Origin: Bacteroidota bacterium
Lineage (GTDB): Bacteria > Bacteroidota > Bacteroidia > Bacteroidales > Prolixibacteraceae
Reading direction: 5' to 3'
NCBI GenBank assembly: GCA_039714235.1
Contig: JBDLJS010000001.1
Location: 17,595 to 81,594 of the forward strand
Length of the DNA stretch: 64,000 nt
Positions 31,239 through 55,826 of the stretch are shown piece after piece. Position 1 is the stretch's first letter. Each line of letters begins with the position of its first letter. Position numbers and translations under genes: made by a program. Below the pieces are notes generated by a model. The model did no database searches and had not been told where the DNA came from. It worked only from the letters and a program-made list of their open reading frames with translations.

Positions 31239-31515
31239 TAATTTAGTTGGTATCGGGATAAAACTCCTTATATCCTTTAAAATTCGCATTTTGAATCCTG
31301 AATGCAAAATTCTGAGACACAATTTTTTAGAAAAGTGAGTTCGGATTAGGTGGAAGATATGAAATTTGATATGATTTTTATTTACGAATTAGTTTTCCCT
31401 CTTTCCGGTATTCTTTCTTAATCCCTTTTACGAGGTCTTCTGCTGAAATGGTATTTTTCTTTTTTTCCAAAGTTTTCAAACCAGCATACTGGATAACGTT
31501 CACGATGTTAGCCCC
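30738..31515. repeat. Direct repeat copy B
   Basis: Counterpart of 28792-29552, offset about 1.95 kb. Confidence 0.9.
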
Positions 31516-32694
31516 GGTTAAGTCGTAATTTCTTGCTATTTCTTCAAGTTTTATCTTCTTTTCCAACTTTACTGTTCCAGGAATATAGTTTTTCCAAAGT
31601 TTAATCCGTTCGTTTACTCCGGGATTTTCGAATTCTACAAAGGCGTTAAACCTGCGGGTAAACGACGAGTCGATGTTTGATTTCATATTCGAAGCCAGAA
31701 TTACCAGTCCTGCATGCATTTCTATTCGCTGCAACAGGTACGAAACCTCCTGGTTGGCGTATTTGTCGTGGGCATCGCGTACATTGGTACGTTTCCCAAA
31801 CAGAGCATCAGCTTCGTCGAAAAACAATATCCAGTTTTTGTTAGCAGCCTTATCGAACAGTTTTGAAAGGTTTTTCTCGGTTTCGCCAATATATTTTGAG
31901 ACTACCACAGATAAGTCAACCCGGAAAACATCGCGGTTGGTGTATTTTCCCAGCAGGCAGGCAGTCATGGTTTTTCCTGTTCCGGGAGGGCCATGAAAAA
32001 GTACCCGGTAGCCCGGTTTAATTTTCCCCCTCATTTTCCAGCTATCCAGCAACTTTTCGTTGAATTTCAGCCAGGTTTCCAACTCTTTAATTTCTGAAAG
32101 TGTTTTTTCTTTCAAGACTAAATCTATCCACTCCAATTCGGTGGTTATCAATTGTGCTGGAAAATCAGCACTTAATTTTGGTTTAGATATTTTTCCCATT
32201 GTAAATAAATCGACATATTCCTCATCCATTACCAGACGCCCGCTCATTTTGGGTTCTCCAACCGGAACCGGTTCAATGTAAAGAACATTTTTACGTGCAA
32301 ACAGGTGTGTTTCATCAAAGAGTTTAGCTATCTCAATCCGTTTCTGGGGATTTTTACCTGCAAGGATATACAAAACCGTTTCTCCCGTTGGGAGTATGCC
32401 CCTGTGGTTTTTGCCTTTTACACCGCCAAACTCGGGAAAGTCGCCGCCGTTAGGGAGATATTCAACTATAATGTTATTAAAAAATTCGGGAGAAATATGT
32501 GGTTGTAGAGCAATTAGAAGAGTTATTAACTCTGGTCGCGTGAGTTTGTTTTGCTTAATAAAAAATGCCAGTTCTGATTGCTCCAAACTACTTGGTAAAA
32601 ACTCAGGAATATTTTCTTTCTTTCCTTTTAACTCTGATTCCAATCGCCAAGTAAAAATTATTTTCAGGTAATTAATGAAATTATCGCTAATCAT
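31378..32694 (-). CDS. eCIS AAA+ ATPase (Afp15/Pvc15-like)
   Basis: GPPGTGKT Walker A, ILFFDEADALFGKR, DKYANQEVSYLLQRIE; last gene of the CIS operon. Confidence 0.9.
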   Translation of the reverse strand: MISDNFINYLKIIFTWRLESELKGKKENIPEFLPSSLEQSELAFFIKQNKLTRPELITLLIALQPHISPEFFNNIIVEYLPNGGDFPEFGGVKGKNHRGILPTGETVLYILAGKNPQKRIEIAKLFDETHLFARKNVLYIEPVPVGEPKMSGRLVMDEEYVDLFTMGKISKPKLSADFPAQLITTELEWIDLVLKEKTLSEIKELETWLKFNEKLLDSWKMRGKIKPGYRVLFHGPPGTGKTMTACLLGKYTNRDVFRVDLSVVVSKYIGETEKNLSKLFDKAANKNWILFFDEADALFGKRTNVRDAHDKYANQEVSYLLQRIEMHAGLVILASNMKSNIDSSFTRRFNAFVEFENPGVNERIKLWKNYIPGTVKLEKKIKLEEIARNYDLTGANIVNVIQYAGLKTLEKKKNTISAEDLVKGIKKEYRKEGKLIRK

Positions 32695-32715
32695 TTAATT
32701 CGCATTTATTAAAAC

Positions 32716-33123
32716 TCAGTCTTTCTGAATTGTTTGCAGTTTAGTATTTATGATATCATCTATTTTCTGAAAAAGATTATACTCAACTGACGGAATTCCA
32801 GCAATGATAATTTCATTTATTTGTGATTCGCACTGCAGTTTCCAAATCACAACTCCTTTTAGGTTTCCATCTGCTTTAATTTCGTTTTTAACTTTACAAC
32901 ACTCTATTAATACCACTTTTAAATCTTCCAATCCTTCATTTTTCAAAATTGAAATATAATTCCAGTTATCATTTGTATTTAAATAATACAAACAACCATC
33001 AGGATACACCCTCGAAATTAATCTTTCTCCATAATCAGGAGGAATATAAGTTTTTTCAAACAAAGGATTCTGATTTTTGTGTTGCTCCTTCAAACCAATA
33101 TTATTTTGAATAAACTGACTCAT
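32716..33123 (-). CDS. Hypothetical 135-aa cytoplasmic protein directly downstream of the DUF4157 cargo gene
   Basis: ORF fits the operon with gaps of about 30 and 20 bp; no recognised motif. Confidence 0.55.
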   Translation of the reverse strand: MSQFIQNNIGLKEQHKNQNPLFEKTYIPPDYGERLISRVYPDGCLYYLNTNDNWNYISILKNEGLEDLKVVLIECCKVKNEIKADGNLKGVVIWKLQCESQINEIIIAGIPSVEYNLFQKIDDIINTKLQTIQKD

Positions 33124-54340: not shown

Positions 54341-54357
54341 AATTTTTAATTTAAATT

Positions 54358-55233
54358 TTACATGTATATTTCTGAATATATTTTATTGTTGGTACTGTTG
54401 GGCTTAACTAAGCTGGCATCAGGATTGGGAAGCTCAACTCCACCAAGTTCTATAGATACAAATCCTTTTTGGGTTAACGGCTGCAAATCCTTTGTTACCA
54501 GAATTCTGGCATTACCATTCTCTTCTTCAACATCATCTTTATTTTTCACTTTTTGGTCTTCATCGAAATAGTAGCGCCAAACTGTTTTTCTGTTTTCAAA
54601 TATTATTTCGAAAACCTGATAAGGCTCAGGGATTTCACCTGTTGCGCCGGTAACATCAAGGGCACTGGTTTCTCCTTTCATTCTGATTTTAACAACACCA
54701 AATAAATTATGCATTTCAGGTATAGTCAATTCTTCATACACACTCTCTGACCCGGCTGTTGATAAAACGAAAGTGTCATCAATTAAACTGTTATCTCCTT
54801 TTTGGTTAATCAATGGGAAAGTGCCGGGTTCTGTACTTAATCGGTTATTCGAAAAGAAAAAAAGCTTACCGGCATTTGCAAACCCGAGTTCAGTATAATT
54901 TAAGAAGATGTTGTGTCTCAATTTCAACAAAAAAATCAGTTCCAGTGAGTTATCTAATGGGATAAAAGGAACGGTATCGTCAGATTCGGAAACTTTTACC
55001 CAAACCATAAAACCTGAACCATAAGTTTTAAAAACCATATTATGGCCATCGAGTTTTATGCGACTTTTTGCTGAAGGCATAATAGTAAAGACGTCTGAAA
55101 CGGAATAGCCGGCAAGCAGTTTTTCCTGTTCCGCTTCGCTCATGATTAAAAAATCGTCAGTCCCTTTGTTTAAAAAGAACTGATGAAGAATATTCACCTT
55201 AAAAAGCGGATTATATTTTATTGAAAAGCTCAT
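54358..55233 (-). CDS. Conserved CIS protein between cap and sheath (cap-adaptor candidate)
   Basis: 291 aa, translationally coupled (TAATG) to DUF4255; ends LPNP.......YSEIYM. Role inferred from position. Confidence 0.55.
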   Translation of the reverse strand: MSFSIKYNPLFKVNILHQFFLNKGTDDFLIMSEAEQEKLLAGYSVSDVFTIMPSAKSRIKLDGHNMVFKTYGSGFMVWVKVSESDDTVPFIPLDNSLELIFLLKLRHNIFLNYTELGFANAGKLFFFSNNRLSTEPGTFPLINQKGDNSLIDDTFVLSTAGSESVYEELTIPEMHNLFGVVKIRMKGETSALDVTGATGEIPEPYQVFEIIFENRKTVWRYYFDEDQKVKNKDDVEEENGNARILVTKDLQPLTQKGFVSIELGGVELPNPDASLVKPNSTNNKIYSEIYM

Positions 55234-55826
55234 TAATTAATATCGTTTAGTTCGCCGTCGATATGAGTAATAACCGCTGAGGTAGATAACTTCTTATCGC
55301 GGTCGATCTGGATTAGCTGAATTTTATAAATAACTGATGGTAGTTGCCTTCCCCCCAATGTGCCCCAAATATGATTCAGGACTTCGAAACCAGGGGTATA
55401 TAACTGCACTACAAACTTGAAATAATCTAGTGGATCGAATGAAACATTCGAGCGGTTATAAACAGTGTTTGCCGAGGTAAATATCTTTTTACCCTGGAAA
55501 TATTCTATTACCTTGGAAATGCTTCTTAATGATATATCGTAATTGTCGCAATTGGCACTAACCATTAAAAATAAATTAAGGTTAACCGAGGGATTTTTGT
55601 ATTCTGTACCATTATTCACAACCTTAACTGCCGGAAAATTTTTTAAAGCCGATTCTTCTTCGATATTGAGCAGGGTTAAAACCACTTTCCCCTCAAGGTT
55701 ATCAGCACTTTCGCTTCCCGATTCCCAGAGGGCAATGTTATCGAGGATGATAATATTTCCTAATCCAACTTCTTCAAAAAATGCATCGAGCTGTTCTTTC
55801 AGAATTTGTAACGTTTCGTATATCAT
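55233..55826 (-). CDS. DUF4255 cap/terminator protein (Afp16/Pvc16-like)
   Basis: Start MIYETLQIL (ATG 55826). VVLTLLNIEEE, LNLFLM.SAN, YFQ.KKIF, IWGTLGGRQLPSVIYK. Confidence 0.88.
   Translation of the reverse strand: MIYETLQILKEQLDAFFEEVGLGNIIILDNIALWESGSESADNLEGKVVLTLLNIEEESALKNFPAVKVVNNGTEYKNPSVNLNLFLMVSANCDNYDISLRSISKVIEYFQGKKIFTSANTVYNRSNVSFDPLDYFKFVVQLYTPGFEVLNHIWGTLGGRQLPSVIYKIQLIQIDRDKKLSTSAVITHIDGELNDIN

Follow-up and report, generated by a model that had tools for sequence, protein, structure and literature searches.

The question raised by this locus is which cells a contractile injection system of a marine Bacteroidota bacterium is built to strike, and what it carries into them. 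The closest known system, AlgoCIS of Algoriphagus machipongonensis PR1 (alg1-19, cargo genes Cgo1/Cgo2; PDB 7ADZ/7AEB/7AEF, 9WSZ-9WT1), is now used as an engineering platform (PROCIS), and what it naturally targets and what its cargo does are long-standing questions. The stretch analysed here, which we call the window, is 64,000 nucleotides of contig JBDLJS010000001.1 from a Draconibacterium (Prolixibacteraceae). On the minus strand of the window, at 31378-55856, lies an operon for an extracellular contractile injection system (eCIS). We are confident that this is an intact operon of the AlgoCIS type (clade Ib) with a probable target in the bacterial periplasm. The preliminary description of this DNA had left target and function open, and we believe its payload narrows them to that probable bacterial, periplasmic target.

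The machine encoded by the operon

The operon consists of 19 co-oriented open reading frames (ORFs), all intact, spaced by no more than 32 nt and with several start/stop overlaps. Its first gene starts at either a TTG at 55856 or an ATG at 55826. Parts were assigned from Pfam families together with sequence searches against solved PDB chains. The genes for the structural parts and the loader are these:

55233..55856, minus strand, cap protein of the Alg16/Pvc16 type (Pfam Pvc16_N, formerly DUF4255, E 1.5e-30)
54358..55233, minus strand, cap adaptor, 291 aa (phmmer match to AlgoCIS 7adz_1A, E 4.3e-30, residues 3-290; no Pfam family)
52922..54340, minus strand, single sheath, 472 aa (phage-sheath Pfam domains; AlgoCIS Alg2 7adz_2A, E 4e-179)
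52464..52898, minus strand, inner tube of the Alg1 type (Pfam Phage_T4_gp19, E 1.9e-52)
52029..52460, minus strand, second tube-family protein, Afp5 type (Pfam Phage_T4_gp19, E 7.2e-43)
51869..52072, minus strand, Alg6-type plug (Pfam DUF5908, E 3.4e-17; Algo6 7aef_t, E 6.9e-8, query 16-67); the real start is probably ~45 nt inside the listed ORF
51145..51867, minus strand, tube initiator with C-terminal LysM, Alg7 type (Pfam CIS_tube, E 1.6e-52, and LysM)
49397..51148, minus strand, VgrG-like spike, 583 aa, without toxin extension (Pfam Phage_base_V, E 7.7e-20)
49106..49396, minus strand, PAAR tip, 96 aa, a bare domain (Pfam PAAR_motif, E 9.4e-25)
48692..49102, minus strand, gp25-like baseplate wedge (Pfam GPW_gp25, E 9.2e-26)
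45438..48680, minus strand, Alg11 baseplate protein with spike-cage domain (7aeb_G, E 1.9e-248)
42691..45483, minus strand, Alg12 baseplate protein (7aeb_A, E 9.8e-279, query 12-930 to chain 1-933); the real start is probably ~11 codons inside the ORF
38471..42679, minus strand, Alg19-type tail fibre, 1402 aa, with a PKD module (9wt0_a, E 3.3e-208, query 1-1342 to chain 1-1380; Pfam PKD_4)
36938..38470, minus strand, tape measure, 510 aa (Pfam CIS_TMP, E 3.6e-111)
31378..32694, minus strand, Alg15-type AAA+ ATPase, the predicted cargo loader (Pfam AAA, E 5.4e-26)

Pfam Baseplate_J was also assigned within the operon. The core eCIS set (sheath, tube, initiator, VgrG, PAAR, gp25, two baseplate-J-like proteins, tape measure, cap and ATPase) is all present, and the ATPase has its motifs intact, with Walker A GPPGTGKT at residue 235 and Walker B ILFFDE at 289. 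The preliminary description had read a full AlgoCIS-like inventory in one minus-strand run and had seen no extensions on VgrG or PAAR. Both claims stand: all 19 ORFs are intact, the structural parts have Pfam or PDB matches, and the two spike proteins, at 583 and 96 aa, carry no toxin extensions. It had also called one gene Afp13-like, and this name has to be given up: the 1402-aa product is a full-length homologue of the AlgoCIS fibre Alg19.

The class of the machine was judged by ranking phmmer scores of the sheath against solved contractile injection system sheaths. AlgoCIS comes first with 599 bits, followed by the thylakoid-anchored system of Anabaena (tCIS) with 542, SalCIS with 382 and the Afp/PVC sheaths (Afp3/Pvc3) with ~240. 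The sheaths of R-pyocin and T4 reach ~30 bits, and no TssC/VipB chain is among the matches to solved structures. The earlier assignment to the class of antifeeding prophage (Afp), Photorhabdus virulence cassette (PVC), metamorphosis-associated contractile structure (MAC) and AlgoCIS particles, not to the type VI secretion system (T6SS), is borne out by this ranking; by these scores the sheath does not rank with the sheaths of pyocin, phage T4 or T6SS. A T6SS reading was also rejected on the genome itself, which has no match to VipB/TssC (PF05943) in the 90% complete assembly.

Besides its cap adaptor and plug, AlgoCIS is set apart by a cage, which domain IV of Alg11 (residues 278-643) forms (PMC8894135), and by the fibre Alg19, which has no Afp/PVC homologue (PMC8894135). 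All four features are matched here. The match to Alg11 runs in two blocks (query 3-464 to 7aeb_G 4-493, and query 536-1079 to 7aeb_G 511-1049) and, as aligned, takes in the cage domain. The likeness to AlgoCIS extends to the order of genes from cap to ATPase, the single sheath gene, Alg12, the downward-pointing type of fibre and the length of the tape measure (510 aa here, 526 aa in AlgoCIS). What Afp/PVC (Serratia, Photorhabdus) and the MACs have in common with this locus is the core eCIS set, a Pvc15-type AAA+ loader and separately encoded cargo that carries N-terminal packaging signals. Afp/PVC differ in several ways: they have three sheath proteins and fibres of the Afp13 type, lack both cap adaptor and cage, encode their cargo downstream of the ATPase, and target insects or eukaryotes.

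Apart from its host, which belongs to a different order (Draconibacterium, Prolixibacteraceae), the locus departs from AlgoCIS in its sheath. Query 3-262 aligns to Alg2 2-278 and query 254-472 to Alg2 475-692, so ~196 residues of Alg2 (about 279-474) have no counterpart and the four-domain architecture of Alg2 is not found. By position, the absent residues would belong to the outward-facing extra domains of AlgoCIS. The sheaths of Maribellus (locus L016) and of Saccharicrinis (L020) have the insertion, and that of D. aestuarii lacks it; as a variable decoration it is no defining feature of the class.

The shorter sheath bears on how the machine is used. It is collinear with the 484-aa sheath of Anabaena tCIS, which likewise lacks the AlgoCIS insertion, and tCIS (All3314-All3326; PDB 7B5H/7B5I) ranks second, after AlgoCIS, for the sheath, Alg11, Alg12, fibre, plug and cap adaptor. 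One could argue from this that the system is never released, being either anchored in the membrane as the Amoebophilus T6SS of subtype iv (T6SSiv) or a cytoplasmic cell-death device as in Streptomyces CIS and Anabaena tCIS. The cage is common to T6SSiv (PMC8894135), and the locus contains no genes for lysis or release. However, the baseplate and fibre score far lower against tCIS than against AlgoCIS (Alg12 391 versus 931 bits, Alg11 445 versus 831, fibre 151 versus 698), neither the Alg19-type fibre nor the cap adaptor is truncated, and AlgoCIS occurs free in the cytoplasm and in supernatants (PMC8894135). The tCIS is anchored to thylakoids in a cyanobacterium, and there is no such context here. 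We regard non-release as very improbable.

The cargo block and its loading region

The remaining four genes lie between the tape measure and the ATPase, where AlgoCIS encodes Cgo1/Cgo2 (PMC8894135):

36548..36934, minus strand, SH3b mini-protein (P0003), 128 aa, pI 11.8 (weak SH3_3/SH3_2 Pfam matches; its look-alikes in the atlas are SH3b clusters)
35400..36518, minus strand, cargo B (P0002), 372 aa (loading region 1-~165, DUF922-like HExxH domain ~165-355)
33154..35367, minus strand, cargo A (P0001), 737 aa (Pfam eCIS_core, DUF4157, E 9.6e-34, residues 184-259)
32716..33123, minus strand, P0004, 135 aa, GC 0.29, without signal peptide, conserved partner of the cargo A toxin domain

Cargo A and cargo B begin alike, with 64% identity over ~170 residues. 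A basic N-terminus opens the region, followed by FF...FF.Q.KL.VGQP.D.YE.EADRVA, another FF, PLAE.ITPLVQKQ and finally Glu runs, and the motif is conserved in 17 of 18 cargo N-termini from the genus. A hidden Markov model (HMM) built from those 18 N-termini, all from relatives, finds exactly two matches among the 14,702 ORFs of the genome, and these are cargos A and B (E 2e-22 and 1e-19). Orphan cargos elsewhere in the genome were sought by tblastn with the loading region, with the HMM and with PF13699, and none was found. The host genome has a single sheath gene for a contractile injection system and a single DUF4157 (PF13699) match, which is cargo A.

What such a region does is known from AlgoCIS, whose tube lumen is filled by a DUF4157 cargo (PMC8894135). 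There the disordered N-terminal region is necessary for loading and Alg15 is required, and DUF4157 is dispensable (bioRxiv 10.64898/2026.05.27.728243). Cargo B has no Pfam match to DUF4157 at E<=5. It is a natural loading region without DUF4157, in line with the dispensability found by engineering. The cargos resemble those of AlgoCIS in their disordered N-terminus, DUF4157 and a variable C-terminal domain, one of which is a predicted metalloprotease. They differ in that one of them lacks DUF4157 and in their C-terminal domains, and two small genes here are extra, the SH3b gene after the tape measure and P0004 before the ATPase.

The C-terminal part of cargo B has 22 homologues, all unannotated, in which PHExxH, CxxCxxxxC, SDALDPF and LDCE are invariant. 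At the N-terminus they differ: some carry the loading motif, others a DUF4157 domain (in Pareuzebyella sediminis) or a leader that is basic and disordered. The three contexts examined were all eCIS cargo blocks adjoining CIS_TMP, AAA or eCIS_core genes. An AlphaFold2 model of cargo B (pLDDT 84) matches clusters of the AlphaFold database (AFDB) named DUF922 with E 6e-17, TM 0.67 and 37% identity; the Pfam model of DUF922 (PF06037) gives no match to cargo B at E<=5. Among solved structures nothing convincing was found for this domain (best Foldseek E 0.11, best VIA Z 5.4). DUF922 has been predicted to be a zincin (PMC3650047), and from the model we consider cargo B a putative zinc protease of DUF922-like type.

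Three cargo-like genes had been claimed for this block. Two of them do carry the loading region; the third is the basic SH3b mini-protein P0003. It was considered as a third cargo because of an FF..FF pattern that its N-terminus has in common with the cargo leaders, and was rejected on sequence: the loading-region HMM gives no match to it at E<=100 and finds both cargos. A homologue with 58% identity occupies the same slot in two metagenomic contigs (L047 and L048), in the order tape measure, SH3, cargo A type, P0004 type, AAA, and distant relatives of 160-172 aa occur in unrelated contexts. Judged by these homologues, P0003 is a real and recurrent accessory gene.

Cargo A, its partner and the probable target

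Cargo A consists of the loading region (1-~180), DUF4157 (184-259) and a metzincin-like domain (~310-730) with a nested OmpA-like domain (~517-648); its motif is HELGHVFGLGDEY. The C-terminal region (476 residues) has 78 database homologues with identities of 25-77%, mostly DUF4157 proteins of Bacteroidota/Prolixibacteraceae, and no DUF4157 protein of Cgo1 length is among the matches to this domain. In the family HExGHxFGLxDEY is invariant (HELGHVFGLGD here) and the Met-turn MSTG nearly so. The AlphaFold2 model of the region has pLDDT 89 and pTM 0.86. Its residues 256-386 match OmpA-like domains with VIA Z 12.7 (9uu2) and 12.4 (3td3) and a Foldseek E of 8e-6. The surrounding fold (model ~50-468) matches ulilysin with Z 8.6 and ADAMTS-5 and mirolysin with Z 8.3 over ~165 residues, astacin and snapalysin lower; these values are moderate and only moderately above background, and the motif and the Met-turn support the fold. 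We consider cargo A, too, a putative zinc protease.

The small ORF of the preliminary description is indeed present, and it can now be given an identity: P0004 is the conserved partner of the toxin domain of the large cargo. It has 34 homologues among representatives of 50%-identity clusters, its own cluster not counted. In every context where a homologue was detected, it lies immediately 3' of the cargo A toxin domain. These contexts are the window, L028, L037-39, L040, L044/45, L047, L049, L050, L051 and a JGI contig, and they were reached from both sides, the search having started from the small protein for L037-39, L040, L044/45 and the JGI contig and from the toxin for L049, L050 and L051. 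Three of the loci (L040, L045 and L051) are not eCIS loci. In these the toxin begins with another N-terminus, short and disordered, and lacks a signal peptide. A lipobox signal peptide is found on the partner in L045 and L051, as on many distant members of the family.

When the gene for a toxin without signal peptide is followed by one for a periplasmic lipoprotein, this usually marks an antibacterial effector that acts in the periplasm, together with its immunity protein. T6SS periplasmic effector-immunity pairs are of this kind, with a signal-less toxin, a small cognate gene next to it that often encodes a lipoprotein, and a domain of cell-wall-binding type in the toxin. The pair described here differs from them in having an eCIS loading region in place of delivery by VgrG, PAAR or Hcp, and in the lack of a signal peptide on the eCIS-linked partner. 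Cargo A and P0004 look like an effector-immunity pair to us, with P0004 as the candidate immunity protein.

One non-eCIS island, L040 (4293-12232), deserves separate mention. Three large genes lie there in a row, each paired with a small one. The metzincin/OmpA toxin homologue has a P0004 homologue beside it, a 723-aa Peptidase_M48 protein is joined by a 243-aa ORF, and the last pair consists of a 692-aa protein and a 232-aa ORF. It may be an array of effectors and immunity genes.

AlgoCIS has been seen to bind a bacterium via Alg19, with the tube ending in the periplasm of Echinicola pacifica (bioRxiv 10.1101/2025.10.08.681156). Because of this, of the pattern of signal-less toxins beside lipoprotein partners and of the OmpA-like fold in the toxin, the most likely target of the present system would be the cell envelope (periplasm) of competing bacteria.

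The same machine, loaded in the same way, could instead be aimed at a eukaryote such as a protist, an alga or an invertebrate larva, and the metalloprotease cargo would then act on proteins of this host, with P0004 as a cargo-specific chaperone or an inhibitor that acts before loading. In favour of this, the MACs of clade Ib act on eukaryotic cells (PMC8894135), the producer was recovered from marine material, P0004 lacks a signal peptide, and many toxins active on eukaryotes have metzincin folds, with the fold of cargo A matching ADAM/ADAMTS. We believe this is unlikely, though still more probable than non-release. Outside eCIS loci, partners of the lipoprotein type adjoin toxin homologues that lack a signal peptide, as in antibacterial effector-immunity pairs, and the toxin has an OmpA-like fold. 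The homologous fibre of AlgoCIS binds bacteria (bioRxiv 10.1101/2025.10.08.681156), and AlgoCIS had no effect on any eukaryote tested (PMC8894135).

It is important to realize that several points weigh against the favoured reading, an AlgoCIS-type system aimed at the bacterial periplasm. AlgoCIS killed none of the bacteria on which it was tried (PMC8894135). In the OmpA-like domain the conserved Arg is kept (R325 of A3, invariant), and the position of the Asp that binds diaminopimelic acid (DAP) is Ser throughout the family (GxAS; GYAS versus GHTD); because Ser replaces this Asp, binding of peptidoglycan by cargo A is not assured. The eCIS-linked partners, P0004 included, have no signal peptide, and for that reason P0004, as predicted, could not protect the periplasm of the producer; it may act here as a cytoplasmic inhibitor or as a chaperone. 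Homologues of cargo A with 31-43% identity (L021, L033 and L041) have no detectable P0004 homologue beside them. Clade Ib contains membrane-anchored T6SSiv in addition to the MACs, and sequence alone leaves the mode of action unfixed. Finally, the host is known from a metagenome assembly that is 90% complete.

With a bacterial target in mind, the working of the machine can be proposed from its homology to AlgoCIS; particle formation, release, loading, target and protease activity are all matters that we infer. The baseplate (gp25, Alg11 with its cage, Alg12, the VgrG-PAAR spike, Alg7 and the Alg6 plug) would nucleate the tube and the single-protein sheath, the tape measure would set the length of the particle, and the cap and cap adaptor would close tube and sheath. 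In AlgoCIS the tape measure is a ruler for both length and amount of cargo, at 0.229 nm per residue (bioRxiv 10.64898/2026.05.27.728243), and if this coefficient holds, a 510-aa tape measure predicts a particle of ~117 nm. The AAA+ ATPase would recognise the acidic disordered N-terminal region common to both cargos and thread them, unfolded, into the tube lumen. Binding of the Alg19-type fibres to a target cell would lead to contraction of the sheath and expulsion of the cargo. P0004 would be the safeguard of the producer.

A wider scenario is more speculative, and we offer it as a tentative one that may well be wrong. AlgoCIS-type particles in general would be antibacterial and act in the periplasm. 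The metzincin/OmpA-like cargo and its partner would form a mobile effector-immunity module, passed back and forth between the loading regions of eCIS and other means of delivery, and the partner in eCIS would have lost its signal peptide and become a cytoplasmic safety catch. The SH3b protein would be an accessory of a new sort, perhaps an adaptor to the poly-Glu loading region. Should this scenario hold, it would give a lead to the natural role that has long been sought for AlgoCIS-type systems.

Fixed and exchanged modules in the genus

The analysis shows gene content, homology, predicted folds and linkage in the window and its relatives, together with the distribution of the system in the genus. 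Modules were compared across 16 Draconibacterium loci. Core genes are 60-90% identical in syntenic loci and the ATPase 69-75%, and the tape measure only 35-43%. The fibre has a long form (about 1400-1585 aa) and a short one (~870 aa), which have only the first ~500 residues in common, and the last 50 residues of long fibres count among their three least conserved stretches of that size. The block between tape measure and ATPase holds one to three cargo genes for proteins of 345-1435 aa, with a common N-terminal region and differing C-terminal domains, often with a small ORF before the ATPase. The survey separates fixed modules, the core and the ATPase, from swapped ones, the form of the fibre, the sequence of the tape measure and the cargo block, and this is useful for mining cargos and for retargeting fibres.

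Two loci are exceptional in this slot. L032 (5850-7118) and L034 (5831-7096) have there a single ORF of ~421 aa unlike the loading region or either cargo, which may be another type of cargo or a replacement. L049 (ENA ERZ21878172 ctg9140l, about 979-3996) is an eCIS locus broken by a DDE_Tnp_1 transposase. Only fragments of its tube initiator and tape measure are left, and the toxin of cargo A type, the partner gene and the ATPase are intact.

Distribution, genome and borders

The host assembly is 4.05 Mb in 199 contigs from a marine metagenome, and a look for sequencing runs that hold the locus gave two DNA runs of a single marine study and no RNA run. An Alg12 homologue (61-75% identity) is present in 23 of the 24 Draconibacterium genomes searched, and none was found in most other sampled families of the same order. 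More distant relatives of the locus occur in Maribellus (L016) and Saccharicrinis (L020). An analysis based on dbeCIS already lists Draconibacterium among the genera with one eCIS operon (PMC11495950). Because of this listing and of the presence in 23 of 24 genomes of the genus, the locus is a further representative of a known type and no new system.

Two side observations concern other copies. A 19-kb contig assigned to the metagenome-assembled genome of a Limnohabitans sp., a betaproteobacterium, carries an AlgoCIS-type locus (L017; Alg12 49% and tube 86% identical) and looks like a mis-binned Bacteroidota contig. In the host assembly, which has no second sheath, the small contig C193 (136-726) carries another VgrG-like fragment, 34% identical to the locus VgrG over its residues 379-558.

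The flanks of the operon are housekeeping genes, upstream crcB, DUF190, enolase and an HtrA-like protease, and downstream an endonuclease/exonuclease/phosphatase (EEP) family gene, a CE15 esterase and others. The crcB and DUF190 genes (56370-57258) are divergent from the operon. A scan of the window with Rfam found no family at the gathering score, so no known riboswitch (a fluoride riboswitch, for example) or small RNA lies 5' of the operon.

The 3' border is marked by a diverged direct repeat of ~780 bp (28779-29554 and 30725-31517; 80-96% identity by segment, 89% on average). Each copy has the 3' end of the ATPase gene, the intergenic region and the 5' end of the CE15 gene. The copy next to the ATPase contains a broken 5' part of CE15, and the distal copy a 44-codon ATPase stub (84% amino-acid identity) together with the intact CE15 gene. 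The EEP gene (29626-30588) lies between the copies. It was considered as a part of the system and rejected, since it has no loading region and is in none of the corresponding regions of relatives that were searched. Because CE15 directly follows the ATPase in seven relatives and the EEP gene is in none of those searched, we treat the EEP gene as a probable local insertion outside the system.

Significance

As the discovery of a system this locus is ordinary; what it adds is the analysis of the payload and the antibacterial hypothesis. The relative described here provides natural experiments on the AlgoCIS design, namely a cargo without DUF4157, a cargo paired with an immunity-like gene and a sheath without the outward-facing insertion. 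The envelope-directed architecture of cargo A and its immunity-like partner make an antibacterial role directly testable.

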